Below are positions 162 to 63,703 of a DNA stretch of 64,000 bases, in pieces. The position numbers and the translations under genes are program-made. The notes below the pieces were generated by a model. It was not told the DNA's origin and searched no databases. It saw only the letters and a list, made by a program, of their open reading frames with translations. Origin of the DNA: Gammaproteobacteria bacterium (GTDB lineage Bacteria > Pseudomonadota > Gammaproteobacteria > Eutrophobiales > Eutrophobiaceae); assembly GCA_965221695.1 (NCBI GenBank), contig OZ244905.1, forward strand, positions 1,312,001-1,376,000, in the 5' to 3' direction. Each line of letters opens with the position of its first letter. Position 1 is the first letter of the stretch.

Positions 162-185
162 TAAGGAACCTCTGAGATTAACTCT
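162..185. repeat. F1 element, single terminal half-site
   Basis: TAAGGAACCTCTGAGATTAACTC matches the F1 end (compare TAAGGAACCTCTGAAATTAAGTC at 6781). Confidence 0.65.
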
Positions 186-201
186 CACTTGTGTCCGCCA
201 A

Positions 202-444
202 TCAGTAGGCCGGAGTGTGTCGGACATGGTCGGAAACCAGCAGAGGTAGAGGGACATCAATCATGAGTGCGCCGGAATCTTCAGCAGCCTGTAGCACAGA
301 GGATGCTTGTCGTGAGCCTAAACTGGCGTATTCTTTGTCAGGTTTGAAACCCAGTTCTTTCAGCGCCTCTGAAAGAACCCCTCTCTCATAGCAGGATTCA
401 ATAAAAAGCTGGATTGCCTCAAGATCTGGGTTATGCATGGCCAT
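202..444 (-). CDS. hypothetical protein, divergent from the XRE gene
   Basis: ORF 202..474; ATG at 444 follows an AGGA-like RBS; no recognisable motif. Confidence 0.4.
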   Translation of the reverse strand: MAMHNPDLEAIQLFIESCYERGVLSEALKELGFKPDKEYASLGSRQASSVLQAAEDSGALMIDVPLPLLVSDHVRHTPAY

Positions 445-531
445 TATCGTTATCCTAATTTTGAGTATACCCATAGGAGTATCTGTTCCTCAATGCTTAT
501 GGATTAGGTTCGTTAGAAAATTGATTCTATC

Positions 532-641
532 ATGTCATTGAATCTCATCAATGTCTTATATTACCCATTATTAATATGATATGTCATCATAATGTCATTT
601 TATTTATATACTTTTATCATGTATTATTATAAATATGTCAT
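532..641. promoter_or_regulatory. AT-rich divergent promoter region with repeated ATGTCAT (putative operators)
   Basis: ATGTCAT at 532, 581, 592 and 635; ATGTCTT at 551. Confidence 0.45.
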
Positions 642-663
642 TAATATATCAAAGGTGAATTGT

Positions 664-1617: not shown

Positions 1618-1844
1618 AGAAGCAAAAGATAGAGCCTACTGATCATGCTGTGTTGCGGTATCTGGAGCGGATCATAGGTATTGACGTTGAAAATTATCGT
1701 AACAACCTTATTCAGGATTTGAATACAGCGCCGAGGGTGCAAAAGGTCATGGATTTTGTAGGAAATAGCAAATTTAAACTCACGAGAAACGGAGTTATCT
1801 ATCGTCTCCGTGATGGTAAGATTATCACCTGCTATCCAGATTAG
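1614..1844 (+). CDS. small basic protein, possibly RelE/BrnT/DUF4258-like
   Basis: ATGA overlap with the XRE stop; TDHAVLRYLER at the N-terminus, IITCY at the C-terminus. Confidence 0.6.
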   Translation: MKKQKIEPTDHAVLRYLERIIGIDVENYRNNLIQDLNTAPRVQKVMDFVGNSKFKLTRNGVIYRLRDGKIITCYPD

Positions 1845-2046
1845 TATCACAAATATCCTTTGATTGACTGAAGGTAAGGCCTCCAGAATGTATATCGATT
1901 CCTGTTGTTTTCTTACGTGAGCGGCTTGCCGGCGGTATTGACGCCAGAAAATTTACACGCCGCAATGAGCAGTTGTTAAGATTTCCCTTGGATATTTGAT
2001 GTATGATGTTTGATGATATGTAAATCAATCCAATTGGTGATCTACA

Positions 2047-2295
2047 GTGCGCACAACTTTAAATATCGATAATGAATTGCTTATTGCGGTCAAGGAGCTA
2101 GCACATCGGGAACAAAAAACGGCCGGGTTGGTTGTGTCAGAATTACTGCGCCAGGCTTTGCAGGCACGTTTGGAACATGCGCGAGGAAAAACAGCCTCAC
2201 ACCGGGATATTTACGGGTTTCAACCTGTTCCTTCCCGCGGCAATATAGTGACTAACCAGTACATTAACCATCTCCGGGAGGAAGTCGGCGATTAA
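2047..2295 (+). CDS. vapB: VapB-type ribbon-helix-helix antitoxin
   Basis: MRTTLNIDNELLIAVKELA N-terminus; directly upstream of a PIN toxin. Confidence 0.85.
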   Translation: MRTTLNIDNELLIAVKELAHREQKTAGLVVSELLRQALQARLEHARGKTASHRDIYGFQPVPSRGNIVTNQYINHLREEVGD

Positions 2296-2299
2296 CTCC

Positions 2300-3532: not shown

Positions 3533-4408
3533 TTATTTCGCTTGTAGCACCTCCTGGCAGGCAGCCGGTAGGTCGGCCATCATGATTTCGGGGGGTGGTT
3601 CTTCAGGCGCTGGCGGGTAGAGCGCTTCGTCGGTGAACCACCAGTCCAGTTCTGCATCGCAGCCATTGCCTTCTGGGGGTGGTTCCTGGCTGATACAAGC
3701 GCCTGCGTCCGGACAGTGCAAGCGCACGTGGAAATGGGAATCGTGGCCCCACCAGGGGCGCACCTTGCGTAGCCAGCCGGTATCGTTTTCATCTCTGTCG
3801 TCGCACAAGCGGCGTTTGATCGCCGCGTTCACAAAGATGCGAGCCACGGCTTTGTCCCGCGCCGCGGCCTTGATGACCCGGGAATGCCCATCGGTCCAGG
3901 TGTTGTTCACTTGCAGCCGGTTTGCCGCGACCAGGGAGGGAGAGTTTATTTGTTCGCGTTCTGCCTGACTCAATGCCAGGCTGTCCGGCGGGCGCAGCCA
4001 GATGTCGGCATCGAGACCGATCTGGTGCGAACGGTGGCTGGATATCATTGGTCCGCCCCGGGGTTGGCTGATATCGCCCACGTAAAGTCCCGACCAGCCG
4101 GCGGACTGGGCTGCGCGGGACAGCCGCTCGATGAATGCAATCATATCAGGATGGCCCCAGTTGCGATTGCGGGACAGCCGCATCGCCTGCCAGCCAGGGC
4201 CTGATTCGGGCAGTTGCGCGGCGCCGGCGAGACACCCAGCCGCATAGCCGCCAAACGGCGCGCTGGCGCCGTCTGTCGGCGTTGCCAGCCCGCTGAAGAT
4301 GAACTTGGCTGGCTGCCCGTTCTGCGCGCCGGCGTTGAATGGCAGAATAAGACCAGTAGCGAGAACCAGCCAAACGAATATGTTCGAATTTATGCAGGTT
4401 CCTATCAT
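3533..4408 (-). CDS. mepA: penicillin-insensitive murein endopeptidase
   Basis: SRNRNWGHP, GDISQPRGG, HRSHQIGLDAD, WWGHDSHFHVR; signal peptide. Confidence 0.93.
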   Translation of the reverse strand: MIGTCINSNIFVWLVLATGLILPFNAGAQNGQPAKFIFSGLATPTDGASAPFGGYAAGCLAGAAQLPESGPGWQAMRLSRNRNWGHPDMIAFIERLSRAAQSAGWSGLYVGDISQPRGGPMISSHRSHQIGLDADIWLRPPDSLALSQAEREQINSPSLVAANRLQVNNTWTDGHSRVIKAAARDKAVARIFVNAAIKRRLCDDRDENDTGWLRKVRPWWGHDSHFHVRLHCPDAGACISQEPPPEGNGCDAELDWWFTDEALYPPAPEEPPPEIMMADLPAACQEVLQAK

Positions 4409-4830
4409 TCCGGGGTGAATTCGCTCATACTGGGTGGATAAGTGTCGTATTTCGGCAAGTCATCGTTTATATCGCACCAGCTAGCCTTTGACTGCCAAAA
4501 CATATGCATCGCTTCTCCGATCTCAATTTCCCCGTCCAGGGTGGCGGCGGTAGCAGCAAGCGCTTTGCCGCCGTTGATCTCTGCAACCAGGGCCGAGCCG
4601 CACACATTACAGAACAGCCTGGCTGAGTGAGAGCTTGACTGGTAGCGGCCGAGTAGTTCCTCCCCTTCCAGCCAGGTAAAACGCTCCGGAGCTACCGGCT
4701 CAATGTAGGTGCCGAATGCGGCGCCGTGATATTTCTGGCAAAAGGCACAATGACAATGATCGATATCATCGGATGTTGTATGCACTTCATAGCGGATTTT
4801 CCCGCAAAGACAGCTACCTTGGGCTTTCAT
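4405..4830 (-). CDS. GFA/CENP-V family protein
   Basis: GSCLCG, HCHCAFCQK, FCNVCGS zinc motifs. Confidence 0.9.
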   Translation of the reverse strand: MKAQGSCLCGKIRYEVHTTSDDIDHCHCAFCQKYHGAAFGTYIEPVAPERFTWLEGEELLGRYQSSSHSARLFCNVCGSALVAEINGGKALAATAATLDGEIEIGEAMHMFWQSKASWCDINDDLPKYDTYPPSMSEFTPE

Positions 4831-4925
4831 GGGGACCTCCGGTCAGGTTGATTTGATATCTCATAATACACCGCGCGAGACTGCGAGGGATATTATGCCC
4901 TAATCTGTATTCCCCATCGGAAATT

Positions 4926-5154
4926 AAAGGAAACTCTGAACAAGTCCATCCTGGACTTGCCAGAGTACGAAAAACAAAAATGCGATTTTTGTTTTCCTCA
5001 CAATATCAATGCCTTACAGTCATTGATATTGATGTGCACCTTCCATGGCGCACACCCTTCGGGCATCCTTCGGATGTCCAAATCCGCTCCAGGCGGATTT
5101 GTGACGATACATCCTTGTATCGTAGGAACCTCTGACTTAATCAGAGGTTCCTTA
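4926..5154 (+). mobile_element. F1 MITE-like element, long form (~229 bp)
   Basis: GGAAACTCTGA...TCAGAGGTTCCTTA ends with consecutive internal hairpins; near-identical inverted copy at 24028-24255. Confidence 0.9.
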
Positions 5155-5157
5155 AGA

Positions 5158-6780: not shown

Positions 6781-6860
6781 TAAGGAACCTCTGAAATTAA
6801 GTCGGAGGTTCCAACGGTACAGGGATAGGTCGTCAAAATCAATGACAATATGTCATTGAT
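6781..6860 (-). mobile_element. F1 element, degenerate partial copy (right-end hairpins)
   Basis: TAAGGAACCTCTGAAATTAAGTCGGAGGTTCCAACGGTACAGGGATAGGTCGTCAAAATCAATGAC matches the reverse complement of the F1 right part. Confidence 0.8.
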
Positions 6861-8142
6861 TTTTTGGGTAAAACAAAAATTTCTTATTCCCTGGAATGTA
6901 AGATAAAAATACGTAAATGGAAAAACCAACAACAATTGCATCTATGGCAGGAACGGTTGTAAATACAATCATCTTGCTATCGGACAGGTAACCTGCTACT
7001 GAACCCAGAATCCAGGCCAGAAACGCTATGGGATTATATCGGCGAGCGCGTTGCAATGCTTCGTCAGTATAACGCTGTTTGTTTAACCAAAAATAGTCCG
7101 CCAGGTAGACACCGGCAACAGGCGGTATCATGAAAGCAAGAAATTTCAGGAAATAAAGAAAGTTATCCAGTATCGGCAACATGGCTATCAACGTACCCGC
7201 AAAACCGACGACAATGACCAACTTCCATTTCGCCACTGTCTCCGCGATGGTTGCAAAGACCAAGGACGCGGAATAAAGGTTATAAGCATTAGTGGTCCAG
7301 GTAGCCAACAGTAATAACGTAAGACCAGGCACACCCAGGCCGACTATAAGGATCACTTTCAAAAAGTTTGCTTCAGCAGTGGCGACGACCGGTATTGCGG
7401 CAAGTAATAAAATTACAGGCACTCCGAGCCCGAAACTCAGTGACGCCGCTTGAACAGCATCGGTAGATGAACGAGCATAACGACAAACATCGGGAAACAT
7501 GGTCGTAGCAACAATAAACCCACCAATTCCGGCAGAAATCCCTTCGGTGAGCTCCATTGTCGCCTCATGATCAAAGTTCAATCCAAAAGAAGTGGCTGCC
7601 ACGTAAACCAACCAGCCCAACAAGCACACCATGATCGGTACCGCCAGCTTGGATAAACGATCCAACCCTTTAAAGCCAAAAATGGCAATCGCAATCATTA
7701 ATCCTGACGCCATAATCAGATAGAAACGATGGCTTAATGGCTCCCCTCCCATGTCCCGCACTATCACCTCGACGGCGCGTGCAAACATATCAACGGTGGC
7801 GCCATACCACCCCAGCACGGTAATGCCAATAAATGCGCTGACAATTCTGGCGCCCGTATGGCCGAACGAATACTGGATGATAACCCAGGTTGTCAGTCGG
7901 GTACGTGCAGCGAGCACCCCGGTAGCGCCGGCAATAACAGACAATACGATACCTGCAATGAAAAAAGCCACAATAGCCTGCTTTAGTCCCAGGGCACTGG
8001 CCAGTTGCGCCCCCACCAGAAATACCGGCAGAGTAATAATAGCGCCTACAAGAACAACTGTGATCTTTAATCCGCTGACGGCTATCGAATCCGGCACGCG
8101 GTGGCGAGAGTAATCTTCAGTCAGTTTATCGAAATTTCGCAT
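6853..8142 (-). CDS. NCS1/CodB-like purine-cytosine permease
   Basis: 429-aa polytopic membrane protein; SFGHTGARIVS, GWYG, WTTNAYNLYS, PPVAGVYLADYF. Confidence 0.85.
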   Translation of the reverse strand: MRNFDKLTEDYSRHRVPDSIAVSGLKITVVLVGAIITLPVFLVGAQLASALGLKQAIVAFFIAGIVLSVIAGATGVLAARTRLTTWVIIQYSFGHTGARIVSAFIGITVLGWYGATVDMFARAVEVIVRDMGGEPLSHRFYLIMASGLMIAIAIFGFKGLDRLSKLAVPIMVCLLGWLVYVAATSFGLNFDHEATMELTEGISAGIGGFIVATTMFPDVCRYARSSTDAVQAASLSFGLGVPVILLLAAIPVVATAEANFLKVILIVGLGVPGLTLLLLATWTTNAYNLYSASLVFATIAETVAKWKLVIVVGFAGTLIAMLPILDNFLYFLKFLAFMIPPVAGVYLADYFWLNKQRYTDEALQRARRYNPIAFLAWILGSVAGYLSDSKMIVFTTVPAIDAIVVGFSIYVFLSYIPGNKKFLFYPKNQ

Positions 8143-18747: not shown

Positions 18748-18831
18748 AAGCCCGAAAATCTCACCAATTCGCTTGTTAGCATCGGATAGATGTTTGCTGT
18801 CATCGTATCAATTGGTGAGATATTCGGGCTA
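18748..18831 (-). mobile_element. F2 MITE-like element, internally deleted (84 bp)
   Basis: AGCCCGAAAATCTCACCAATT...AATTGGTGAGATATTCGGGCT inverted ends; interior matches 30186-30373. Confidence 0.85.
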
Positions 18832-21132
18832 GAAATCCTTACGGACTTCAAGACCGAAGCTGCGCGGACGGTTGGTCATTATGCGCGGGCGTCCGGGCTT
18901 CTCCGCGGCGATGGAGCGATTATCCGACAGGTTGGCATGTTCGTTGGTCGCGTTTTTGACAAACAGGGCGATATCCCAACTGCCGGCCTGGAAAGCGCCG
19001 ATACGGATATTGAGCAACTCGAAGGAATCTCTGACCCGCGGCGGCAATGTGCCGCTGTTATTTCCACTCAGGCTGTCGCCGTAATGGGAAAAATCACCGC
19101 GCACATAGCCTTCCCACGTGGAAAACAGCGGGAAACTGTATTCAGCGGCCGCATTGAAAGTAACTTCCGGAACCTGGGTCACGCGATCGCCGGCGGCAGT
19201 GCCTGCCAGCGGATTTCCTGAAGTCAGTTTGGCATCGGTATAGCCGAACCCTAAGGACAGGTTCAAGCCCTCCATCGGAACGGCTTGCAGTTCAACTTCA
19301 ACTCCCTTGTTGTCTGCCTCCCCGGAATTGGCTACGTATTGGAAACCGCAGGCCAGCCGGTTCGTTTGCAGGATATCGCTCCAGTTGATGTTGAAAGCCG
19401 CGACATTCAGGTTAACCCGGTCATCAAACCAGGATGACTTCATGCCAAGCTCGAAATTCCACAGCGAGTCTGAATTGAAGTCTCTTACATCGGCGCTGGT
19501 GATGCCCAGGCTCGCTATTTCATCGGCGCAAAGCAGTTCCGGCACAGACAGGTTCACCCCACCGACGCGAAAACCCTTGGATGCGGAGCCGTAAACCATC
19601 ATGTCTTCGGATACATCAAGCTCCACCAGGACCTTGGGAACCACTTCGGAACTGCTCTGCTTGGTCCTCGGCAGCACAACCGGGCCGCTATTGACAAACC
19701 CGCCCCTGTCAGAATCGAAATCGATGGTCGTGTCGGACCAGCGCGCGCCGGCGGTCAACCTGAGGTTCTCGGTCAGCCTCAGCGTCAACTCGCCGAATAC
19801 CGCGATCTCTTCCGTATCCTGGTCATCGTAGGTATAAAATACCAGGTCGGAACCGAGCAGGCCGGGAGGTACCGGCACCGGAAACCCGGGGACAATGCCT
19901 GTCAGCGCTGCGTTCAGCGCGCCGGTAAACTGTTCATTGACGCCGGGCGCGAAAGAAGGCGGATACTCAAGAATATGCTCCCGGTTCTCGTAGAATACAC
20001 CCAGGGTCAGCGCCACATTGTCAAACGGCAGATCGCCGAAATCGGTGATCAAACGGGTTTCATGCACAAACGAGCTGTCCTCTTCCGTTTCGGAGATTTG
20101 ACTCGGGATGTGCGGCTCAGGCACGCCGTTGGCCGCAAACACCAAGCCATCCAGGGTGCCGGTCTGGTCCTCGTACTCCTCGACATCGCGGTCATACTTT
20201 GCCGTGGTAGATACGATTTCACCGAACCCGGTGTCGATATTGACTGTCACGCTGCCCAGCCACCATTCTTCATCGCCGGGTTCTTCGATGTTGTTATGCC
20301 GGGGCACGTTAAAATTGCCGGGCTTGATATCGGCCAGCGGCAGGTTATCCGATTTTGTGCGCTGATACATGAAGCGGGGCCTGATGCTGATGTTGTCGGA
20401 CGCATTCCAGAGAAACGAGATAGCGCCGCCATAGAACTCATCGTCATCGACATTGGTCGCGGTATTGAACGCAGGCCGGTTGGAACCGGCTATATGTAAC
20501 CGATCAAATACCCCGGAATTTTCCGCATAGTAAAACAGCGCGCGGGCACCCAGCACGCCTTCCACTATGGGGGCGTTCACGCTGCCGTCCACCCGCCAGT
20601 TCAGGCCTCCTTCTTTTATGTCCGATATCGACGTGCGCAGATAACCATCCAACTCCTCCGTATGGGCTTGTTTGGTGATCACACGTACAGTCCCGCCCAT
20701 GGAGCGGGCGCCGTAGAGAGTGCCTTGCGGGCCGCGCAAGACCTCAACGCGCGAGATGTCCGAGACCCGCGGGTTCATGTATTCCGGAACCGGTATGTCA
20801 TCGATATAGAACCCGGTCGCGCCGACCACGCCGCCACCGGCCACGCCGCGGATTGCTGGAGAGCCCGCGTTGAAACGGCCATCGGCCTCATTGCTGAAAC
20901 CCAGGTTGGGAATCTTCACGCCATAGTCGAATATGCCCTCGGCGCCGATTCGTTGCAGCTCAAACTCGCCCAAGGCCGTGATGGACATGGCCGTATCCTG
21001 CAGGCTGGTCTCGCGCTTGGTCGCAGTAACGAGTATCTCTTCAATCACTTGCGCCGGCGCCGCAGCCACTGCGCACAGCAGATATATAATCACCCAGCAT
21101 CGTATACGGGCGATGTTTTTTGTTGTATTCAT
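18829..21132 (-). CDS. TonB-dependent receptor
   Basis: EEILVTATKRE, RVEVLRGPQGTLYG, C-terminal Phe; ATG 21132. Confidence 0.92.
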   Translation of the reverse strand: MNTTKNIARIRCWVIIYLLCAVAAAPAQVIEEILVTATKRETSLQDTAMSITALGEFELQRIGAEGIFDYGVKIPNLGFSNEADGRFNAGSPAIRGVAGGGVVGATGFYIDDIPVPEYMNPRVSDISRVEVLRGPQGTLYGARSMGGTVRVITKQAHTEELDGYLRTSISDIKEGGLNWRVDGSVNAPIVEGVLGARALFYYAENSGVFDRLHIAGSNRPAFNTATNVDDDEFYGGAISFLWNASDNISIRPRFMYQRTKSDNLPLADIKPGNFNVPRHNNIEEPGDEEWWLGSVTVNIDTGFGEIVSTTAKYDRDVEEYEDQTGTLDGLVFAANGVPEPHIPSQISETEEDSSFVHETRLITDFGDLPFDNVALTLGVFYENREHILEYPPSFAPGVNEQFTGALNAALTGIVPGFPVPVPPGLLGSDLVFYTYDDQDTEEIAVFGELTLRLTENLRLTAGARWSDTTIDFDSDRGGFVNSGPVVLPRTKQSSSEVVPKVLVELDVSEDMMVYGSASKGFRVGGVNLSVPELLCADEIASLGITSADVRDFNSDSLWNFELGMKSSWFDDRVNLNVAAFNINWSDILQTNRLACGFQYVANSGEADNKGVEVELQAVPMEGLNLSLGFGYTDAKLTSGNPLAGTAAGDRVTQVPEVTFNAAAEYSFPLFSTWEGYVRGDFSHYGDSLSGNNSGTLPPRVRDSFELLNIRIGAFQAGSWDIALFVKNATNEHANLSDNRSIAAEKPGRPRIMTNRPRSFGLEVRKDF

Positions 21133-23979: not shown

Positions 23980-24008
23980 CTGGATTCCCGTTTGCACGGG
24001 AATGGTAC
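23980..24008. repeat. F3 REP-like half (A')
   Basis: CTGGATTCCCGTTTGCACGGGAATGGTAC; same as 45790-45815. Confidence 0.75.
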
Positions 24009-24027: not shown

Positions 24028-24255
24028 AAGAGAACCTCTGATTAAGTCAGAAGTTCCCACGATACAAGGATGTATCGTCACAAATCAGCCTGGAGCGGAT
24101 TTGGACATCCGAAGGATGCCCGAAGGGTGTGCGTCATGGACGGTGCACATCAATATCAATGACTGTAAGGCATTGATATTGTGAGGAAAACAAAAATCGC
24201 ATTTTTGTTTTCCGTACTCTGACAAGTCCAGGATGGACTTGTTCAGAGTTTCCCA
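24028..24255 (-). mobile_element. F1 element, long form, inverted
   Basis: Reverse complement of 4926-5154 with a few substitutions. Confidence 0.9.
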
Positions 24256-24277
24256 AGATTTAACAGGAGAAGATAGT

Positions 24278-25363: not shown

Positions 25364-25461
25364 TGACGCAGATTTTTTTATGCCACAGAGGGCACAGAGA
25401 TCACAAAGTGGGCCGAATATCCGTTCAACATCTGTGCTACTTGGATGCTCAGTAATTTATC

Positions 25462-25534
25462 ATGGGAAGCTCTGAACAAGTCCATCCTGGACTTGTCAGA
25501 GTACGGAACATCTGACTTAATCAGAGGTTCCTTA
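25462..25534 (+). mobile_element. F1 element, short form (73 bp; left and right hairpins only)
   Basis: GGAAGCTCTGAACAAGTCCATCCTGGACTTGTCAGAGTACGGAACATCTGACTTAATCAGAGGTTCCTTA. Confidence 0.88.
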
Positions 25535-25536: not shown

Positions 25537-26526
25537 ATGGGGGTGATGAAGGATAAACGCATCCTGGCCGCCGGCGCCGGACGAATGGGCAGAGGCATTG
25601 CCCACATGTTCGCGTATGCCGGCTACCCGGTGGCGCTGCTTGACGTCAAGGACCGCGACGAGGACGGATTCAGCCAACTGGTTGATGCGGCGCTGGCTGA
25701 AATTGAGGCAAACCTGACGTTCCTGTCCGGGCTCGGCCACATCAGCCCTGCGCAGGTAAACAAGGTCCTCGACCTCATCGAGGTCAAACCCAAGGCAAGC
25801 GCGCCTACAGCGATAGGCGCGGCCGATGTCATCATCGAAGCGGTACCGGAGACCCTGGAAGCAAAAAAGCATGCGCTTGAACTGATAGGGGAACATGCCG
25901 GCGCCGATGCGATAACGACCTCGACCACCTCTTCCATGCTCGTGACTGAACTGCAACAGTGGGTGGCGCAACCGGAGCGGTTCCTGAACACACATTTTCT
26001 GAACCCTGCCTACCTTATTCCGCTGGTGGAGGTCAGCCCCGCTCCGGATACCGCGGAAAGTGTGACGCTGGATATCATTGCCCTGTTCGAATCCATCGGC
26101 AAGGCGCCGGTCAGGTGTGCGGCAGCGCCGGGTTATATCATCCCGCGCCTGCAATCGTTGCTGATGGCCGAAGCCTGCCGCATGGTGGAGGAAGGCGTGG
26201 CGACCCCGGCCGAGATCGACAAGGCTATTACCCACGGTTTCGGCCCGCGCTATGCCACCCTGGGCGTGATGGAATTCATCGACTGGGGCGGCGTCGATAT
26301 TCTCTACTATGCCGGCCACTACCTCTCAAAGGCGCTGGATTCCCCGCGCCATGCCCCACCGGAGGAAGTATCCAGGATGATGCAGGACGGGCGCAAGGGC
26401 ATGCGTGAAGGCCGTGGCTATTACGATTTCCGCGACATGGATGTGGATGCCTGGCAAAAGGAAAAGCTGACCCGGTTCGTCACCCTGCTGGGTAGCCTCG
26501 GTCAGATCCCGAAACCCGGAGTTTAA
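25537..26526 (+). CDS. 3-hydroxybutyryl/3-hydroxyacyl-CoA dehydrogenase
   Basis: GAGRMGRGIA, EAVPE, HFLNPAYLIPLVEV. Confidence 0.9.
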   Translation: MGVMKDKRILAAGAGRMGRGIAHMFAYAGYPVALLDVKDRDEDGFSQLVDAALAEIEANLTFLSGLGHISPAQVNKVLDLIEVKPKASAPTAIGAADVIIEAVPETLEAKKHALELIGEHAGADAITTSTTSSMLVTELQQWVAQPERFLNTHFLNPAYLIPLVEVSPAPDTAESVTLDIIALFESIGKAPVRCAAAPGYIIPRLQSLLMAEACRMVEEGVATPAEIDKAITHGFGPRYATLGVMEFIDWGGVDILYYAGHYLSKALDSPRHAPPEEVSRMMQDGRKGMREGRGYYDFRDMDVDAWQKEKLTRFVTLLGSLGQIPKPGV

Positions 26527-29924: not shown

Positions 29925-30188
29925 ATGCCTGCATCACTCAATTTATCGCTAACCGATGAACTCAAGGAGTTCGTTGAAAAACAGTCTGGCGATGGGACTC
30001 TTTTTGCTACATCCAGCGAATTTGTGCGCTCACTGATACGGGAAAGGAAAGAAAAAATAGAAGCGGCTACTTTACGCGAATCGATCCTCCACGGCTATCA
30101 GGACATAATAGAAGGGCGTACCAGCGAATACAAAGGCAACATCGCTGAGGTAATCAGACAGGTAAAGGAACGCACTGTAACGGGTTAA
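29925..30188 (+). CDS. parD: ParD-like RHH antitoxin
   Basis: SLNLSLTDELKEFVE...SSEFVRSLIRE; upstream of a ParE toxin. Confidence 0.82.
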   Translation: MPASLNLSLTDELKEFVEKQSGDGTLFATSSEFVRSLIRERKEKIEAATLRESILHGYQDIIEGRTSEYKGNIAEVIRQVKERTVTG

Positions 30189-30373
30189 CCCGAGTATCTC
30201 ACCAATTGATGCGATGATCGCTGAGGATTTTTTGACGCGCCCCATCCTTGGGGCGCTTCCTGAACGTATCAAGCGTAGTGTGTGATGGCAACATAGTCAA
30301 CAGATTACCATAACTCATTGACAGCAAACATTTATCCGATCGTAACAAGCGAATTGGTGGGATATTCGGGTTC
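30186..30373 (+). mobile_element. F2 MITE-like element (188 bp) between parD and parE
   Basis: AACCCGAGTATCTCACCAATT...AATTGGTGGGATATTCGGGTT inverted ends; internal GCGCCCCATCCTTGGGGCGC hairpin. Confidence 0.85.
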
Positions 30374-30727
30374 ATGGTAACTTTACACATTACTGATAGA
30401 GCAGCGCTTGAAATCGAACAGGTTCAAGAATATACAAAACAACAATGGGGACAAGACCAGGCTGACAAATATATTGCGGATATAGACAGAATCCTGCAAA
30501 TGTTACAGGAATACCCTGATCTTTTGCAGACAAAGACTCAAATATCCCAATACTTGAAATTCTATGCCACCGGCAAACATATCCTGGTTTTTGAGAAAAT
30601 AAACGACGAAATTTATCTTATAACGGTTAAACACACGGCAATGGATTTAGACAGCCGGATGCCTGAGCTTGAACCCGTTCTTAAAGAGGAAGTGCGGGCG
30701 TTGCGCGCAAGATTACTCAAATTATGA
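30374..30727 (+). CDS. parE: ParE/RelE-family toxin
   Basis: ITDRAALEIEQVQEYTKQQWGQDQADKYI...HTAMD. Confidence 0.82.
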   Translation: MVTLHITDRAALEIEQVQEYTKQQWGQDQADKYIADIDRILQMLQEYPDLLQTKTQISQYLKFYATGKHILVFEKINDEIYLITVKHTAMDLDSRMPELEPVLKEEVRALRARLLKL

Positions 30728-30737
30728 CTCTTTCAAC

Positions 30738-30894
30738 TAAGGAAACTCTGAACAAGTCCATCCTGGACTTGTCAGAGCACGGAAAACAAAAATGCGATTT
30801 TTGTTTTCCTCACAAAATCAATGCCTTACAGTCATTGATTTTGACGATACATCCTTGTATCGTAGGAACCTCTGACTTAATCAGAGGTTCCCTA
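30738..30894 (+). mobile_element. F1 element, medium form (157 bp)
   Basis: TAAGGAAACTCTGA...TCAGAGGTTCCCTA; lacks the 72-bp central module. Confidence 0.9.
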
Positions 30895-43230: not shown

Positions 43231-43263
43231 TAAAGAAACCGCTGATGAAGTCAGGGTTCCCTA
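43231..43263. repeat. F1 minimal degenerate hairpin
   Basis: TAAAGAAACCGCTGATGAAGTCAGGGTTCCCTA. Confidence 0.6.
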
Positions 43264-43380
43264 AATTTTATTGACATTTTGTTCTTGTGGATTTTATACC
43301 ATTATTGTCGCATTGTGAATACTAAATGGCTCTGCACGCCCCGACTGCATGTAACTATTGACCTAGACCGGGGTATTCCG

Positions 43381-45720: not shown

Positions 45721-45908
45721 CCGTACCTCTCCTCAACAGATAGGCTCCCGTCAAATTCTGTGTCGCCCGAAGGGCGACCCTTTGTTCCACTGGATTCCCG
45801 TTTTCACGGGAATGGGAGGGGGGGCGCTTGCATGAGCGCAGCCGCCGTACCACTCCCGCGAAAGCGGGAGTCCAGTCATATTCTGTGTCGCCCGAAGGGC
45901 GACCCTTT
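45721..45908 (+). repeat. F3 tandem composite (degenerate A-B-A', spacer, A-B)
   Basis: Two CTGTGTCGCCCGAAGGGCGACCCTTT copies, CTGGATTCCCGTTTTCACGGGAATGG and CACTCCCGCGAAAGCGGGAGTCCAG. Confidence 0.85.
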
Positions 45909-48280: not shown

Positions 48281-48313
48281 TAAGGAAGCTCTGACTTAAT
48301 CAGCGCTTCCCCA
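48281..48313. repeat. F1 minimal hairpin
   Basis: TAAGGAAGCTCTGACTTAATCAGCGCTTCCCCA. Confidence 0.75.
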
Positions 48314-51110: not shown

Positions 51111-52432
51111 ACCTGCGCGCGCGTGCTGCAAAAGCGCTCTACCGGGTTGTCGACACCGGGCTGACCCTGGATGCGGCCATGGAACCCAGTTTGCATGGCA
51201 TAAAAGGCCCGCGGGACCGCAGCTTTGTGAAGGAATTATGCTTCGGCACCCTGCGCTGGTTCGACCAATTGGAATGGCTGCTCGACCATTGCCTGGAGCG
51301 TCCGCTGAAACCTGGAGATGCGGATATCAGAATGCTGATCCTGGTCGGCCTGTACCAGCTTCGCAACCTGGGGGCGCCGCCTCACGCGGCGGTGTCGGAA
51401 ACGGTTGGAGCAACGGTGGAACTGGACAAGCCCTGGGCAAAACCGCTGGTGAATGCGCTGCTACGACGCGCGCTGCGGGAGGCGCAGCAATTGAACAAGG
51501 AACTTGACCGGCATCCCGGGGCGCGCTATTCCCACCCGGACTGGCTCATCGACAGGATCAGGACCGACTGGCCCGAACAATGGGAAGCCATACTAAAGGC
51601 CAATAATCGCCGGCCTCCCCAGCATTTGCGGGTCAATCTTTTACGCGCCACCAGGGAACGCTACCTGAAAGAACTGGAAAGCGCCGGGATCGAAGCGCTG
51701 GCGCTCGCCTTGACGCCCTGCGGCATCCAACTCCCGGACCCGGTTGACGTCAGTTGGCTGCCTGACTTTGACTGCGGGAGCGTTTCCGTGCAGGATGCCG
51801 GCGCGCAGCTTGCAGCCGGTCTGCTGGACCTGCAGCCTGGCAACCTGGTATTGGACGCCTGCGCCGCGCCCGGTGGGAAGACGGCGCATATCCTTGAATC
51901 CCAACCACAGATTGGCGCCATCACGGCCGTTGATGCCGATGAGCGCCGCAATATGCGCCTGCTCGGCACCCTGAACAGGCTGAACCTGGATGCGACCGTT
52001 ATCCAGGCTGACGCCACCGATACCGAAGAGTGGTGGAACGGCGAACAGTTTGACCGCATCCTGCTGGACGCGCCATGCAGCGCGACCGGAGTCATCCGCC
52101 GCCATCCTGACATTAAACGGCGCAAAGCCCCGGAACAACTCCCCGCGTTGCAAACCACCCAGCTCGAACTGCTGACAGCCCTGTGGCCGTTGCTGAAACC
52201 CGGCGGCAAGCTCCTGTACTCGACCTGTTCCCTGCTGCGCGGGGAAAACGACGGAGTAATCGAATCTTTCCTGGACGACCACCCCTCGGCCAAACCCGAC
52301 ACGATCAGCGCCAAATGGGGAGTTGCCACGGAACACGGCCGGCAACTGCTGCCCGGCCTGGATGACACGGACGGGTTTTATTATGCGGTATTGACGCATC
52401 GTTATAATAGTGGGGTCAGACCAAGAAATTAG
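51107..52432 (+). CDS. rsmB: 16S rRNA m5C967 methyltransferase
   Basis: DACAAPGGKT, DAPCSATG, YSTCS, DGFYYA; ATG 51107 overlaps the fmt stop. Confidence 0.96.
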   Translation: MNLRARAAKALYRVVDTGLTLDAAMEPSLHGIKGPRDRSFVKELCFGTLRWFDQLEWLLDHCLERPLKPGDADIRMLILVGLYQLRNLGAPPHAAVSETVGATVELDKPWAKPLVNALLRRALREAQQLNKELDRHPGARYSHPDWLIDRIRTDWPEQWEAILKANNRRPPQHLRVNLLRATRERYLKELESAGIEALALALTPCGIQLPDPVDVSWLPDFDCGSVSVQDAGAQLAAGLLDLQPGNLVLDACAAPGGKTAHILESQPQIGAITAVDADERRNMRLLGTLNRLNLDATVIQADATDTEEWWNGEQFDRILLDAPCSATGVIRRHPDIKRRKAPEQLPALQTTQLELLTALWPLLKPGGKLLYSTCSLLRGENDGVIESFLDDHPSAKPDTISAKWGVATEHGRQLLPGLDDTDGFYYAVLTHRYNSGVRPRN

Positions 52433-52586
52433 GGAAACTCTGAACAAGTCCATCCTGGACTTGTCAGAGTACGGAAAACAAAAATGCGATTTTTGTTTTC
52501 CTCACAATATCAATGCCTTACAGTCATTGATATTGACGATACATCCTTGTATCGTAGGAACCTCTGACTTAATCAGAGGTTCCTTA
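52430..52586 (+). mobile_element. F1 element, medium form (157 bp); its first bases are the rsmB stop codon
   Basis: TAGGGAAACTCTGA...TCAGAGGTTCCTTA. Confidence 0.9.
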
Positions 52587-53454: not shown

Positions 53455-54588
53455 ATGAATAACGACAGGTTATTTCTTGCGGTAAGCGCGGGGAAGTTTA
53501 TCAGTGTCGCCGGTCTGCTGATTATGCCGGTGTTGGTCGGCGCAATGTTGGACGGCCTGCGCCTGGGTGAAGCAGCCATCGGTATTCTTGCGACGATAGA
53601 ATTCTCCGCGCTTGGCATCGGCCTGATGTTTGTCGCGTTGAACCCCCTTAAAACATCGGCAATGAGATACGCATTGATCGGCGCCGTGTTAATCGTCACG
53701 GGCCAGACAGCCTCCGCACTGATTACCGGATACGGTGCATTGATGGCTTTACGTTTTATTGTCGGCTTCGGCGCCGGCCTTGCCAATGCGGCAGCAACGG
53801 TCAGCATTGCCGCATACTTCAAAGAGCCGGAGCGTACTGCTGGTTATGCCTTCGGTCTGGTCTACCTGGTTGGTGGCGCGCTCTATCTTGGCTCACCGTA
53901 TATGACCGCGTTCGGCTACCATAAAGGCGTTTTCCTGAGCCTGGCCGTAATCGTGCTGGTATTCACCCCATTGCTTTTTGCCTTGCCCGATACGCCGCTG
54001 CAACAGAAAAAAAGACCGGCCGCCGGGCAGGATGTGAGATTAACCACAACGGTCCTGTTACTGTTTACCGCCGAGATTTTCCTGATGATTGGCATGGGCG
54101 CAGCCTGGGCCTTCGGCGAGCGCATGGGACTGGCGGTCAACCTGACCCCAAAAGAGATCGGTTTTTATTTTGCCTGTACCATGATCGCATCCATTGCCGG
54201 CTCGTTGTTTGCGGGCTGGCTGGGCCTGCGCTACGGCAGGACACTGCCTTTTGTCGTCGGGACGATCATGGTGTCTGTCTGTTGCTACTTTATGGCCAAC
54301 CCCGGCATTGCTGTCATTTATATCATCTGTCTGCTGAGTTTCCAGGCGTTCCAGGCGGTATTCATCCCATTTTTAATCGGGACCGGCGCGGCGCTGGAAA
54401 GCAGCGGCCGACTGTCCGCGGCCGTGGTCGCGGTGGAGATCTTCAGTTTCGGCGCCGGGGCGGCCGTAGGCGGCGCCGTAGTTGAAGCGTTCGGGCTGGC
54501 AGCGGTCGGCTGGCTGGCGGTTTTGGGCGGCATTCTTGCTATCCCCCTTCTTATTGCAGTGTGCCTGCCGCTGGATCGTCGGGCATGA
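53455..54588 (+). CDS. MFS transporter
   Basis: Polytopic hydrophobic protein; LRFIVGFGAG, AWAFGERMG. Confidence 0.85.
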   Translation: MNNDRLFLAVSAGKFISVAGLLIMPVLVGAMLDGLRLGEAAIGILATIEFSALGIGLMFVALNPLKTSAMRYALIGAVLIVTGQTASALITGYGALMALRFIVGFGAGLANAAATVSIAAYFKEPERTAGYAFGLVYLVGGALYLGSPYMTAFGYHKGVFLSLAVIVLVFTPLLFALPDTPLQQKKRPAAGQDVRLTTTVLLLFTAEIFLMIGMGAAWAFGERMGLAVNLTPKEIGFYFACTMIASIAGSLFAGWLGLRYGRTLPFVVGTIMVSVCCYFMANPGIAVIYIICLLSFQAFQAVFIPFLIGTGAALESSGRLSAAVVAVEIFSFGAGAAVGGAVVEAFGLAAVGWLAVLGGILAIPLLIAVCLPLDRRA

Positions 54589-55741
54589 TACGCCTGCGCA
54601 TGCTGAAAAACAGCAGGTAGCTGCACGTTAACAGGATAATACTGACATAGATGACGTTGGCATAGCGGTTGCCAACGATGACCAGTCCCGCCAGTACCGG
54701 ACCTGCTGCGATACCCAGACCCTGCATGAAAGGCAGCAGAACGATAGTGCGGCCGGTGCGGTCAAGACTGGCAATCCAGCCGCTTTGAAACGGGATAACG
54801 AAGCTGTAAAAGAAATTATAGACACATAAAGCCACCAGGTAGACGGCGGCTGTCGGATTCCGACCCAGCGCGTAGATGGCGATGCACAACCATACATAGC
54901 CAAACGAGATAGTTACGATGCGTTTCATCCTGCCGGCAAGCCAGGCCGGAGCCAGCGCGCCGGCTAAACTGAACAGCAGGGAGACGGACAGGGCAAACGC
55001 GATAAAGTCCGTGGCAAACCCTTCGGCGTCCCCGAACCGTTCCATGAACGACCAGATGCAATTCATGGATGCAAAGAAAAATCCCACTGCCAATAGCCCG
55101 AAAAGCGCGCGACGTTCTATCGCCTGTGACGAACCGCCTGCGCCCTCAGTCTCAGGATTGGAACGAGGCAAGGCGTAAAGAAGAAATACAGGCAATAACG
55201 CGACCAGGCCGCACATGATGAATACCGGCGCCACTCCCCATCTCGTCCACAGCCAGGACGCGCCATTAAGACACAACGCCCCGATAAACACCTGCAACGC
55301 CATTGAAAAAGCGAACTCCCGGTCGGGATTCGCCGCTGCGCGTATGGTCGCATACATGAATGCAACCATCATTCCTGCGCCAAATCCGGCCATGTAACGG
55401 TATCCCAGAAACACAGCAAAACTTTCGGCCGTGCTGCACATCAGGTTAGAAATGACGACCAGGCATACAGTGAAAGGGAAAACCCGGCGCCAATGGCAAC
55501 GATGTATCCAGTAACGAGCGCTGAACGCGGCGATGGTGTTCGCCGTCATGTCCGCCGATAACAACAGGCCGACCTGCCTGCTGCTGAAATTGAACTCTTC
55601 GGTAAAGATACCCGCCCAGATGGGCAACAGATAATAAACAACCAGGCTGGTTGCAAAAATCAGGTAGGTCAGCCAGCGCGTCGCCCAAGCGTTGACATCA
55701 ATGGGATCAGGGTCGCGATAGTCTTTGGACTGAACGATCAA
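54551..55741 (-). CDS. MFS transporter (same subfamily as its convergent neighbour)
   Basis: RYMAGFGAG, IWSFMERFG, LDRTGR. Confidence 0.85.
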   Translation of the reverse strand: MIVQSKDYRDPDPIDVNAWATRWLTYLIFATSLVVYYLLPIWAGIFTEEFNFSSRQVGLLLSADMTANTIAAFSARYWIHRCHWRRVFPFTVCLVVISNLMCSTAESFAVFLGYRYMAGFGAGMMVAFMYATIRAAANPDREFAFSMALQVFIGALCLNGASWLWTRWGVAPVFIMCGLVALLPVFLLYALPRSNPETEGAGGSSQAIERRALFGLLAVGFFFASMNCIWSFMERFGDAEGFATDFIAFALSVSLLFSLAGALAPAWLAGRMKRIVTISFGYVWLCIAIYALGRNPTAAVYLVALCVYNFFYSFVIPFQSGWIASLDRTGRTIVLLPFMQGLGIAAGPVLAGLVIVGNRYANVIYVSIILLTCSYLLFFSMRRRIMPDDPAAGTLQ

Positions 55742-57117
55742 CCTGAGCGCCTTTTGAAGTCTGATGTTGCCTGGTTGAAAGCGCTGGCAATCATACTGAG
55801 CAGCTCGTCGACATGCTCTTTGCTGAAAACCAGTGGCGGCGAAATGATCAGGTTTGAACCGACATTCCTGATTAGCAAGCCCTCTTTGCGCGTCAGGTCT
55901 TGCAGCAACTGAAGAAAAGGATCGTCTGGCATGAAGGACTCTTTGGATGATTTATCTACTACCAGTTCGATAGCAATCATCAGGCCTTTCCCGCGGATAT
56001 CACCGACAAATCCATAGTCAGATAGCTCATTTTTCAGTTTTGTCAGGCAGTAGCTGCCCACGTTTGCGGCATTTTCCGGCAGGTCTTCATCTTCCACGAT
56101 TTGCAACGCCGCATTGGCGGCAGCACAGGCAACGGGGTGCCCCGAGTAGGTATAGCCGTGCAGGATCGCGGCCAGTGGGTGGTCGGAATCCCAAGCCTTG
56201 CGAACACGCTCGTTCACCACGGTTGCGCCCAGAGGGATATAACCGGAGTTGATGCCTTTGGCCAGGCACATGATGTCGGGTTTGACGCCCCAGCCGCGAC
56301 AACCGAACATACTGCCGCTACGACCGAAACCGGTGACCACTTCATCAGCAATCAGTAATACTCCGTACTTATCACAGACATCCCGGACCAGCGGCCAGTA
56401 GTTGTCAGGCGGCACAATCACGCCACCGGCGCCCTGTACGGGTTCAGCGATAAACGCCGCGACCGTGTGCGGCCCCTGGTGTACGATTTCCCGTTCCAGT
56501 AGGTTGGCGCAGATCTTTCCCAGTTCCTCCGGATCCTCCGTATAGGGATTACGATACAACCAAGGGGTATCGACCTGAAAACAACCGGGCAGTACCGGCT
56601 CGTACATCGAGCGAAGATACATCTGGCCGCCGATGGATGTACCGCCAAAGTGCACCCCATGGTAACCCTGCTTCAGTGAAATAAACTTGGTACGTTGCGC
56701 CTCGCCGGACAGCTTCCAGTATTGCCGAGCCAGCTTCATGGCCGTTTCATTGGCATCCGAACCGCCGGAACCAAAAAACACCCGCTGCATGTCTTCGGGC
56801 GCGAGCATGCGCATCAGCCGTTCCGCCAGTTCGATAACCGGCAGGTTGCTGGTGTCGCCGAAGGTGGTGTAATAGGGAAGCCGCTCCAACTGGGCGTTGA
56901 TGGCTTGTTTCACCTCCTGGCGCCCATGTCCCACGTTTACGCACCACAGACCGCCCTGGGAATCCAGGTAACGCCTGCCCGACGTATCGTAGATATAAAC
57001 CCCCTCTGCGCGCTCGAATACCAGCGGCGCTGCCTGCTCCATCTCGCGCGGCGCGGCCATCGGATGCCAGTGATGGATATTTGTTCGTGTTTCATTCGGT
57101 CCTGTATCGCGTTTCAT
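55738..57117 (-). CDS. class III (omega-amine) aminotransferase
   Basis: GLWCVNVGHG, IADEVVTGFGR, LAKGINSGY, HGYTYSGHP. Confidence 0.92.
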   Translation of the reverse strand: MKRDTGPNETRTNIHHWHPMAAPREMEQAAPLVFERAEGVYIYDTSGRRYLDSQGGLWCVNVGHGRQEVKQAINAQLERLPYYTTFGDTSNLPVIELAERLMRMLAPEDMQRVFFGSGGSDANETAMKLARQYWKLSGEAQRTKFISLKQGYHGVHFGGTSIGGQMYLRSMYEPVLPGCFQVDTPWLYRNPYTEDPEELGKICANLLEREIVHQGPHTVAAFIAEPVQGAGGVIVPPDNYWPLVRDVCDKYGVLLIADEVVTGFGRSGSMFGCRGWGVKPDIMCLAKGINSGYIPLGATVVNERVRKAWDSDHPLAAILHGYTYSGHPVACAAANAALQIVEDEDLPENAANVGSYCLTKLKNELSDYGFVGDIRGKGLMIAIELVVDKSSKESFMPDDPFLQLLQDLTRKEGLLIRNVGSNLIISPPLVFSKEHVDELLSMIASAFNQATSDFKRRSG

Positions 57118-57149
57118 TTTAGATGCCTTTTACTTTTTTGAAAGAGTAC

Positions 57150-57197
57150 TATGGAAGCTCTGAACAAGTCCATCCTGGAGTTGTCAGAGTTTTCCTA
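57150..57197 (+). mobile_element. F1 element, left hairpin only (48 bp)
   Basis: TATGGAAGCTCTGAACAAGTCCATCCTGGAGTTGTCAGAGTTTTCCTA. Confidence 0.8.
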
Positions 57198-57201
57198 GAG
57201 T

Positions 57202-61998: not shown

Positions 61999-62026
61999 AT
62001 CAGAAGGGCAATCCCGGAATTTGCCA

Positions 62027-63637
62027 ATGGCCCTAAACGCAGCCTATGACGCCGTTATCATCGGCGCCGGCCACAACGGATTGACCTGTGCCAACTACCT
62101 GGCCCGTAAAGGACTGAAGGTGAAGGTGGTTGAACGCCGCCATGTGGTCGGTGGCGCAGTGGTCACGGAAGAGTTCCATCCGGGTTACCGGAATTCAACC
62201 TGTTCCTATGCGGTGAGCCTGCTCAATCCAAAAGTTATCCGTGATCTCGAACTGCATAAATTCGGGCTCGAAATAAAGGACAGGGAATTTACCGCCCTGG
62301 TGCTGGGCGCTGACGACACCTACCTGTTCACCGACACCGACAGCGAAAGCGACCAGGACGATTTTCTTGCGCAGTTGCGCCACGGCTGTCCGGGAGACGA
62401 TGCAGCCTATCCCGACTATGACGCAGTGATCCAACAGGTTGCCGACGTATTACGGGACATGGCGCTGGAGACACCACCGAATATCGGTGGCGGATTGACG
62501 GACTTGTGGCGCGCCGGAAAACTGGCGAACAGGATGCGGCGTTTGCAGCCCGCGCTGCAACGGGAAACGATCAAGCTGTTTACCATGAGCGTAGCGGATT
62601 ACCTGAAACAGTGGTTCGGCGGGGACTTGATACTGGCGCTGGAGAGTTATATCGCGATGGTGGGCAACATGCAATCGGTCTACTCCGGCGGTTCGGCCTA
62701 TGTGCTGCTGCACCACATGTTCGGCGAGGTAAACGGGATGAAAGGGCGCTGGGGGCATGTCACGGGCGGGATGGGCGGCATCACCCAGGCCATGGCGAGG
62801 TCTGCCGAAGCGCAGGGTGTAGAAATTGAGGTCAACGCGCCGGCGCAGGAAGTGATCGTGAAAAATAAGCGCGCGGTTGGCGTCAGGTTGGAAGACGGAC
62901 GGGAGATACATGCAAAAGTCGTCGCGGCAAATGTCAATCCGAAGTTGCTGTTCCAGAGACTGGTGAATCAAGCACATCTGGAGTCGGATTTCAAACGCCA
63001 GATGGATAATTATCGCTGTGTCAGCGGCACATTCCGCATGAACGTGGCGCTCAGCGAGCTGCCGCGCTTCCGTTGCCTTGATGGGAAACCGAATTACGAG
63101 CGTTACCTGCAGGGAAGCGTATTCGTCACCAACTCAATGGAATACAACGAGCGCGCCTATCTAGACGCCATCAACCTGGGCTGGTCAGAAGAACCCATTG
63201 TCCACATGATGGTTCCCTCGGTCTACGACCACACCCTGGCGCCGGAAGGCAAACATGTGGCCAGCCTGTTTTGCCAGCATTTCAACCCGCAACTGCCCGA
63301 CGGCAAATCCTGGGACGATGTCAGGGAACAGGTCGCAGATTTAATCATCGATACCGTTAATGACTACGCGCCCAATTTCAAGGATGCGGTAGTGGGTCGT
63401 CTGGCGCTCAGCCCATTGGACCTGGAACGGGAATTCGGGCTGATCGGCGGCGATATATTCCACGGCTGTATCCAGCCGGACCAACTCTTTTCACTCAGGC
63501 CCGTAGCCGGGCATGCCGATTATCGGATGCCGGTCAAAGGCCTTTACCTGTGCGGCTCCGGCGCCCACCCCGGCGGCGGAGTAACCGGCTGCCCGGGGCA
63601 TAACGCCGCGCGGGAGATCCTGAAGGATATCCGGTAG
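62027..63637 (+). CDS. phytoene dehydrogenase-like FAD oxidoreductase (PYROXD2-like)
   Basis: IIGAGHNGL, GGMGGIT, GGDIFHG, LYLCGSGAHPGGGVTG; ATG 62027. Confidence 0.9.
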   Translation: MALNAAYDAVIIGAGHNGLTCANYLARKGLKVKVVERRHVVGGAVVTEEFHPGYRNSTCSYAVSLLNPKVIRDLELHKFGLEIKDREFTALVLGADDTYLFTDTDSESDQDDFLAQLRHGCPGDDAAYPDYDAVIQQVADVLRDMALETPPNIGGGLTDLWRAGKLANRMRRLQPALQRETIKLFTMSVADYLKQWFGGDLILALESYIAMVGNMQSVYSGGSAYVLLHHMFGEVNGMKGRWGHVTGGMGGITQAMARSAEAQGVEIEVNAPAQEVIVKNKRAVGVRLEDGREIHAKVVAANVNPKLLFQRLVNQAHLESDFKRQMDNYRCVSGTFRMNVALSELPRFRCLDGKPNYERYLQGSVFVTNSMEYNERAYLDAINLGWSEEPIVHMMVPSVYDHTLAPEGKHVASLFCQHFNPQLPDGKSWDDVREQVADLIIDTVNDYAPNFKDAVVGRLALSPLDLEREFGLIGGDIFHGCIQPDQLFSLRPVAGHADYRMPVKGLYLCGSGAHPGGGVTGCPGHNAAREILKDIR

Positions 63638-63669
63638 TTCACGAGAAACTCAACGATATAAACAGATTG

Positions 63670-63703
63670 AAGGAAACTCTGAGACCTAATCAGAGTTTCC
63701 TTA
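63670..63703. repeat. F1 minimal hairpin with perfect 13-bp arms
   Basis: AAGGAAACTCTGA-GACCTAA-TCAGAGTTTCCTT. Confidence 0.8.

Follow-up and report, generated by a model that had tools for sequence, protein, structure and literature searches.

What are the short hairpin repeats that recur between the genes of a gammaproteobacterial chromosome, and how did they become so numerous with no transposase beside them? Our analysis addresses this question for one such family, F1, in a stretch of 64,000 nucleotides (the window), which comprises positions 1312001-1376000 of the single 3.54-Mb contig of a genome here called G000. The preliminary description, made from the letters of the window, had listed 11 F1 loci, and all 11 were confirmed when their sequences were read. 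The shared end motif TARGGAANCTCTGA, with at most one mismatch, matches 16 times in the window, where shuffled sequences give an expectation of 0.06 and a maximum of one match per shuffle. We conclude, at a probability of roughly 85%, that F1 is an abundant, orphan MITE (miniature inverted-repeat transposable element) family of the IS5 group, which has the ends of an IS5-type insertion sequence (IS) and whose transposase has gone from the genome.

The boundaries of the element come from a pair of filled and empty sites. At window position 30738 the filled site reads caaCTAA[GGAAAC...GGTTCC]CTAAattgg, and the syntenic site in the sister species G008 is empty and reads caaCTAAattgg; from this pair it follows that the element proper spans GGAA to TTCC and that 4 bp of target are duplicated on either side of it. 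The ends had been described as flanked by TA. A TA does adjoin most copies, but it belongs to the 4-bp direct repeat and lies outside the element. Both ends of F1 carry terminal inverted repeats (GGAANCTCTGA ... TCAGAGNTTCC), the left end reading GGAAACTCTGAACAAGTCC and the right end, read inward, GGAACCTCTGATTAAGTC (also given as GGAACCTCTGATTAAGTCA). An inverted self-copy adjoins each end, which produces hairpin A on the left and the end hairpin on the right, with hairpins B, C and D filling the middle. Elements of this family are, like MITEs generally, short (27-229 bp), non-coding and multi-copy.

A search by BLAST with the 229-bp form found 311 F1 loci in G000, and 361 were counted over the 3.54 Mb once a pattern for the small hairpin was added. 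Strict pairs of end cores number six at 215-232 bp, 82 at 146-158 bp and 227 at 25-33 bp, 128 of these last being solo; in 89 copies the alignment to the 157-bp form reaches 120 nt or more, with a median identity of 96.7%. The description of F1 as essentially intergenic holds genome-wide, since 256 of the 361 loci lie fully outside called open reading frames (ORFs), against 29 of 361 random placements. Strand use is even among the 89 aligned copies (45 on the plus and 44 on the minus strand), with no bias towards a replication strand or genome strand. The family is present in 20 of the 22 other genomes of the genus and in three of the 16 other families sampled; first-look candidates numbered 324 in G000 and 254 in G008, and 12-71 in the other genomes of the genus with a match. 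A distant-mode search of a plasmid collection with the 157-bp form returned no match.

The duplications are a property of the family and not of one site. Identical 4-bp flanks border 62 of the 82 copies of 146-158 bp, where shuffled pairing of flanks yields 18.0 on average and 28 at most. These 62 comprise 27 non-palindromic direct repeats, 35 palindromic ones (32 of them TTAA) and none that is inverted only, and 48 fit YTAR (T/C-T-A-A/G). The solo minimal copies behave similarly, with identical flanks in 51 of 128 (shuffled mean 12.9, maximum 23) and 29 direct-only cases against one inverted-only. Direct, non-inverted repeats of this kind argue for transposition, since the mere extension of a hairpin stem into its flanks would not give them. 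We propose that insertion duplicates 4 bp of the target, mostly T/C-T-A-A/G, and a duplication of this composition accounts both for the flanking TA and for the frequent abutment of copies on TAA and TAG stop codons.

The source of the ends was sought among the transposases of the genus, where PF01609 has matches in 16 of 23 genomes. A 1150-bp IS at two loci of one of these, G022, begins GGAACCTCCGATCAAGCCC and ends with the inverted equivalent. A search with its transposase against one genome per species returned 80 loci, many of which carry ends of the type GGAACCTCTGA(A/T)(C/T)AAGTCC between 4-bp direct repeats, the ISs being about 1150 bp long. At one locus, L077, the left end reads GGAACCTCTGAACAAGTCC and the right end GGAACCTCTGATTAAGTCC; each F1 end agrees with the corresponding L077 end in 18 of 19 bases, among them those that distinguish the two ends from one another. 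IS ends of the F1 type are also seen elsewhere in the Gammaproteobacteria, three congeneric species among them (L095 and L103 in G001, L137 in G014, L075 and L124 in G022), and the 313-residue transposase of L095 scores 315.5 bits on the NCBIfam model NF033581, 'IS5 family transposase', against a cut-off of 140. The 4-bp direct repeats around partner-type ISs include TTAA, CTAA, TCAA, TATA and CTAT; these ISs thus show targets of the T/C-T-A-A/G type, which we take to be the target rule of IS5. F1 and the IS5-group ISs (NF033581; L077, L095, L137) therefore agree in the first 18-19 bases of both ends and in a 4-bp duplication resembling T/C-T-A-A/G; they differ in that F1 lacks coding capacity and, beyond about 19 bases per end, has nothing in common with them. 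A record of the Olavius Gamma 3 symbiont contains a 151-bp element with the same five hairpins, whose cores (...CTCTGCA) resemble the ends of that organism's own IS, which indicates that the body is retained while the ends change with the resident IS.

No such IS resides in G000 itself. Profiles for PF01797 (the RAYT type), PF13358 (DDE_3, the IS630 type) and PF01609 (the IS4/IS5 type) have no match in this genome, the control genomes for PF01797 do give matches, and a PF01609 search of G008 found no transposase. A tblastn search with five partner transposases recovered a 26-residue remnant and no more in G000 (E = 2e-4), and 866 kb of G008 gave no match. A search with IS DNA found three fragments of 61-110 bp in G000, corresponding to IS positions 1-61 (88.5% identity), 67-152 (87%) and 403-512 (76%), and these remnants imply that the partner was once present and has since decayed. 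The claim that no transposase accompanies the repeats thus stands for the whole of G000, in which neither the profiles, nor tblastn, nor the IS DNA search found one with F1 ends. The only multi-copy ISs of G000, an IS3 (three copies) and an IS21 (two copies), were considered as partners and rejected because their ends are unrelated. On our reading, this genome and its closest relative would both have lost the transposase, leaving the family an orphan.

Mobilisation in trans had been suggested from the outset, by a relative of either IS630 or IS5, and the data separate the two. An IS630/Tc1-mariner-type MITE would duplicate TA, and a TA does stand directly outside the shared end in most copies. 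The duplication is however 4 bp long and includes CTAA, TTAG, CAAG and TATA, it appears as direct repeats at pairs of empty and filled sites, the genome has no DDE_3 protein, and both ends match ISs of the IS5 family, so that we give the IS630 alternative almost no credence. It is the ends and the duplications, read from sequence, that point to an IS5-type transposase as the agent that moved F1.

A comparison with G008 covered 866 kb of a syntenic contig, with sites matched through unique flanks. Of the 361 F1 loci in G000, 42 were comparable; 23 of these are of equal length in both genomes and some of the rest are unclear. G008 is cleanly empty at three of the 42, at G000 positions 1342739 (window 30738; CTAA), 1640173 (TTAA) and 3405380 (TATA), with flanks that are 95-99% identical, and one further site is empty with diverged sequence. 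Five sites with the same flanks hold a long copy in G000 and a short one in G008 (154 vs 30, 156 vs 72, 223 vs 43, 277 vs 28 and 96 vs 32 bp), and at one site a copy of another MITE is inserted into the small F1 hairpin in G008. In the reverse direction a comparison was possible for 47 of 88 loci, of which 23 did not differ; a 27-bp copy in G008 (C4 769635) faces a clean single TTAA in G000, and a 228-bp copy in G008 corresponds to a 41-bp remnant. The presence of F1 is thus not fixed: empty orthologous sites exist, three in G008 and one in G000, and what is duplicated at them is 4 bp (CTAA, TTAA, TATA) and not the TA that had been anticipated. Each difference may reflect either an insertion or a precise excision. 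Within the window, seven loci are shared with G008 (6781, 24028, 25462, 43231, 52430, 57150 and 63669), one is empty there (30738) and one is replaced (4926), the loci at 162 and 48281 being left out of this tally. The replacement consists of 218 unrelated bases in G008 in place of window 4380-5157, a segment that bears a small ORF and a 229-bp F1 copy; the small gene of this segment has matches in G001, G003 and G019. As is usual in short-read assemblies, every F1 copy interrupts the contigs of four sequencing runs, which left one usable joint: in the contigs of X1 and X2, positions 25404 and 25544 are linked by 33 other letters, which represents the allele of a diverged strain that lacks the 25462 copy.

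Several observations weigh against an IS5-type MITE and have to be set beside this evidence. The transposase is absent from G000 and, by PF01609, from G008, yet these two genomes have the highest numbers of F1 copies, and they differ by clean presence or absence at several F1 sites despite having no transposase. Three explanations offer themselves: a very recent loss of the IS in both genomes, an IS that came from a plasmid or phage outside the assemblies, or empty sites that arose by precise excision, for which no transposase is needed. Identical flanks are absent from 20 of the 82 mid-size copies and from 77 of the 128 minimal ones, and in the window itself an exact 4-bp duplication is found in only three of the nine copies with both bounds, five others being one base off. 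In five more distant genomes only the gene downstream of 30738 aligns, with a partial F1 copy of G003 lying in a non-homologous spacer. Finally, the gene calls are crude longest-ORF calls, and the figures for stop codons (49 of 361 loci touch one at an edge, whereas a random intergenic control gives about 14) and for orientation (of the copies in tandem gene contexts, 28 run with the genes and 14 against them, a weak difference) are accordingly rough.

The small forms invite a different explanation, in which F1 would consist of repetitive extragenic palindromes (REPs) spread by RAYT, a tyrosine transposase of the IS200/IS605 type, or of structural or terminator elements of the host. The minimal form is indeed an imperfect palindrome of 27-33 bp at more than 100 intergenic loci, and in size, palindromy, intergenic position and copy number it resembles a REP. 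The structure of the copies suggests another origin. Long F1 elements contain two direct GGAANCTCTGA cores, one at the left end and one in the inner arm of the end hairpin, and a deletion between them would leave a 27-29-bp hairpin composed of left core, loop and right end, with the target duplication intact. The variable fifth base bears on this prediction. In the end hairpins of long copies the two arms agree at this base in 76 of 84 cases, mostly as C/C, whereas in solo minimal copies they agree in 39 of 111 (G/C 30, C/C 24, G/A 14, A/C 12); the fifth base of the long-form left end is A or G in 142 of 151, and solo left arms mostly carry G or A. The mismatch between arms, together with the A/G signature of the left end, implies that most solo hairpins are chimeras of the two ends, as collapse predicts, and the collapse is seen directly at the site with 154 bp in G000 and 30 bp in G008. 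REPs would account neither for such chimeric arms nor for the 4-bp direct flanks (29 against one), nor for forms of different length at the same sites in sister species, and PF01797, the RAYT profile, has no match in this genome; we therefore regard a REP or terminator origin as very improbable.

For the MITE family, we propose instead that copies shrink in place after insertion through deletion between short direct repeats, collapse between the two GGAANCTCTGA cores being the commonest event. The 73-bp form fits a deletion between the GGAA that starts hairpin B and the GGAA that starts the end hairpin. The minimal form may also transpose; there is one clean empty site for such a copy, at which precise excision would look alike. 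At 1445253-1445529 on contig C1 of G000 the F1 body forms a head-to-tail dimer (A-B-C-D, A-B-C-D, end hairpin; 277 bp), and G008 has a 28-bp remnant at this site.

The preliminary description had proposed that hairpin modules are both gained and lost. Loss is what the orthologous sites display; gain, in the one case that could be explained, came from a module shared with another MITE family. The 229-bp form differs by a 72-bp insert, module X, with a core of about 50 bases. Outside full F1 elements this core occurs in eight copies: seven belong to members of another and larger MITE family, whose ends read ...CCCGAAAATCTCACCAATT, and the eighth adjoins hairpin A in an F1-like copy that is truncated. 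Because the module is common to two MITE families, the 229-bp form is a recombinant and not the product of a stepwise gain of a hairpin, and recombination is on this reading the route by which modules are exchanged. The second family is itself multi-copy in all five same-genus genomes searched, and has two copies in the window, at 18751-18829 and 30185-30372. The copy at 18751 (80 bp) exactly fills the space from the stop of one gene to the start of the following one, and in G008, which lacks it, the two genes abut.

The body of the element is a chain of hairpins, as first described, and the folds of both principal forms bear this out. Folded as single-stranded DNA, the 157-nt form gives five hairpins at -52.7 kcal/mol (z = -15.1), and the 229-nt form gives nine stem-loops in its minimum-energy fold and eight in the centroid (z = -13.9). 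Covariation was assessed on an alignment of 37 copies, drawn from the window, from 13 genomes of the same genus and from four genomes outside it, of which three belong to other families. RNAalifold recovers the five hairpins, and 18 of 40 pairs keep their pairing through two-sided changes; the five hairpins are thus kept, with compensatory changes, across at least four of the families sampled. Exceptions to pairing are balanced in our tally, with about 23 G-U against about 26 A-C, so that neither strand is favoured as RNA. The loop bases TCC of hairpins A and D (GGA on the other strand) are nearly invariant over the 37 copies. Correction of quasi-palindromes by template switching could yield such 'compensation' without selection, and covariation alone is for this reason no proof of function; why the hairpins are kept is a point on which we can only infer.

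One reason could be that the hairpins are exapted RNA, which when transcribed would bind CsrA and either titrate it or control neighbouring genes, a role that is compatible with a MITE origin. On the strand that runs from the end hairpin to A, hairpins D and A expose GGA loops, and D reads AUACAAGGAUGU; this reverse-strand D hairpin fits RUACARGGAUGU, which we take to be the CsrA selection consensus. Papers that contain this string concern, by title and among the matches listed, CsrA/Rsm or RNA-binding regulators. The genome has a csrA gene (PF02599, 90 bits) and carries 93 A-type and 114 D-type GGA motifs, and the loops are nearly invariant over copies from several families while the stems covary. 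Set against this, copies that lie downstream of genes show no enrichment of the GGA orientation (for hairpin A, 29 GGA vs 44 UCC, p = 0.10; for hairpin D, 34 vs 49, p = 0.12), strand use is even, G-U and A-C exceptions are about equal, and the D loop of the Olavius symbiont copy lacks GGA. We accordingly consider a CsrA-binding role unlikely, and the alternative that F1 is a structured RNA, raised at the outset, finds no support in the tests of strand and orientation. An Rfam search of the window gave no match at threshold, the best sub-threshold match on the element being to sX7 at chance level (22.5 bits vs 55). A wider proposal, which we consider unlikely, is that the invariant loops of the body would be protein-recognition sites, most likely for CsrA, taken along to each place of insertion, that the burst of about 100 copies would have created a dispersed CsrA sponge or rewired neighbouring genes, and that the 27-29-bp hairpins would be REP-like palindromes born from collapsed DDE-type MITEs, perhaps still mobile as the smallest known transposon substrate.

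MITEs linked to IS5 have been described before, so the kind of element is not new, and it is this family that appears to be undescribed. The excerpted text of PMC4596501 names BrickBuilt, MITEPgRS/MITE464 and MITE700 of Porphyromonas gingivalis, and the ATR element of Neisseria meningitidis, which is linked to ISNme1. As characterised there, these elements are like F1 in being short, non-coding and multi-copy, with terminal inverted repeats equal or nearly equal to those of IS5-family ISs and no internal remnant of a transposase. They differ, as far as that excerpt goes, in several respects: the partner of F1 belongs to another branch, with ends GGAACCTCTGA... and a 4-bp duplication of the YTAR type; their ISs are resident, whereas the F1 partner is missing from this genome; each end of F1 is folded on itself, and its body is a covarying chain of hairpins kept across several gammaproteobacterial families; and most F1 loci are collapsed derivatives of 27-29 bp. 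The REP/RAYT system parallels the minimal form in the features given above and differs in that the genome with F1 has no RAYT gene and that F1 has direct flanking repeats and arms derived from two transposon ends. Tourist-type MITEs such as mPing, which have a kinship with IS5, are likewise non-autonomous elements moved in trans, by PIF/Harbinger transposases. Unlike F1, Tourist-type MITEs are eukaryotic, have a different duplication length and lack a body made of a hairpin chain. The title of PMC4561436 states that excision sites are precisely repaired by means of the target duplication, which offers a precedent for clean empty sites that arise by excision. Full-text searches for the core GGAACCTCTGA and by topic, which extend neither to subscription journals nor to ISfinder, found no description of the family among the papers listed, and a text search of a 2024 review of MITEs (PMC10969869) gave nothing useful on IS5, hairpins or stop codons.

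The interest of the family lies in the fact that both of its asymmetric ends trace back to a partner IS which sister species still possess and of which three decayed fragments are left here. Loss of modules at fixed sites explains how a genome may fill with REP-like palindromes of 27 bp without any RAYT. Several families conserve the hairpin architecture, with compensatory changes, while the end cores differ with the resident IS; such conservation is puzzling for a selfish element. For annotation, some 300 intergenic hairpins in the genus are to be read as remnants of MITEs and not as terminators or small RNAs.

The copies in the window illustrate the range of forms. Two are five-hairpin elements of 157 bp on the plus strand: the one at 30738-30894, described above (element 30741-30891, flanks CTAA/CTAA, against a single CTAA in G008), and one at 52430-52586 with flanks TTAG/TTAG (154 bp in both genomes). 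Two are 229-bp forms. That at 4926-5154, on the plus strand, comprises the left end, hairpins A, B and C, the 72-bp module X, hairpin D and the end hairpin, with flanks TAAA/TTAA that differ by one mismatch; that at 24028-24256 lies on the minus strand between flanks CAAG/CAAG. The 73-bp form at 25462-25534 (plus strand) keeps the left end, hairpin A and the end hairpin without B, C and D, and it ends three bases ahead of an ATG at 25537. The copy at 6781-6880 (G000 1318781-1318880) had been given as 73 bp, and is instead a degenerate copy of about 100 bp on the minus strand, with the end hairpin, D, C and a remnant of B, and of equal length in G008 (100 vs 100). The 48-bp form at 57150-57197 (plus strand, flanks CTAT/CTAG) is a left end folded back through hairpin A. 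Minimal forms lie at 48281-48313 (plus strand, 27 bp between flanks CTAA/CCAA, in a block aligned with G008) and at 63669-63703 (29 bp between flanks TGAA/TTAA), with a degenerate minimal hairpin at 43231-43266 (flanks GTAA/CTAA); neither of these last two is assigned a strand. The same is true of a truncated fragment at 162-190, which has a TTAA flank, the left core GGAACCTCTGA and the loop, and from which an intact right arm is absent. A match to the end motif at 19021 is a chance hit and no F1 copy, since it falls within the ORF of a TonB receptor and its partner arm is absent.

Hairpins of another kind occur near one of these copies and raise the question whether F1 belongs with the Ssn-related motifs of Neisseria, of the NTS/dRS3 type, which are targets of a GIY-YIG single-strand nuclease. 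The window contains two dRS3-like hairpins, ATTCCCGTTT(G/T)CACGGGAAT, at 23984-24003 and 45794-45813, the first of them 25 bp from the F1 copy at 24028, and the pattern ATTCCC-N8-GGGAAT has 200 matches in the genome when both strands of this palindromic pattern are counted. The NTS, dRS3 and degenerate SRM patterns as set out in the excerpted text of PMC11893778 match neither strand of the 229-bp element, however, and the dRS3-like family is a repeat separate from F1; we regard a kinship of F1 with the Ssn motifs as scarcely credible.

Other differences between the two genomes lie close to the repeats. Opposite window position 43324 or thereabouts, G008 (L003) has an inserted stretch of some 270 bp, bounded by the long inverted ends GTACTCTTTCAACTTAATTTTGACATATTCAG, which the window lacks. 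Short pieces of an end of the GTACTCTTTCAACTTAATTTTGACATATTCAG type (CTCTTTCAAC / GAAAGAGTAC) are found in the window at 30725-30737 and 57137-57149, directly beside the F1 copies at 30738 and 57150. The window segment 53422-54567, with a gene for a major facilitator superfamily (MFS) transporter (ORF 53455-54588), is absent from G008, and at 55726-55746 about 20 bases here stand opposite 1373 extra bases in G008. Elsewhere in G000, at 1036938-1106798 and 1934542-1960653 of contig C1, there are long internal repeats of 2-9 kb with many self-matches of at least 85% identity, which may be giant repetitive genes.

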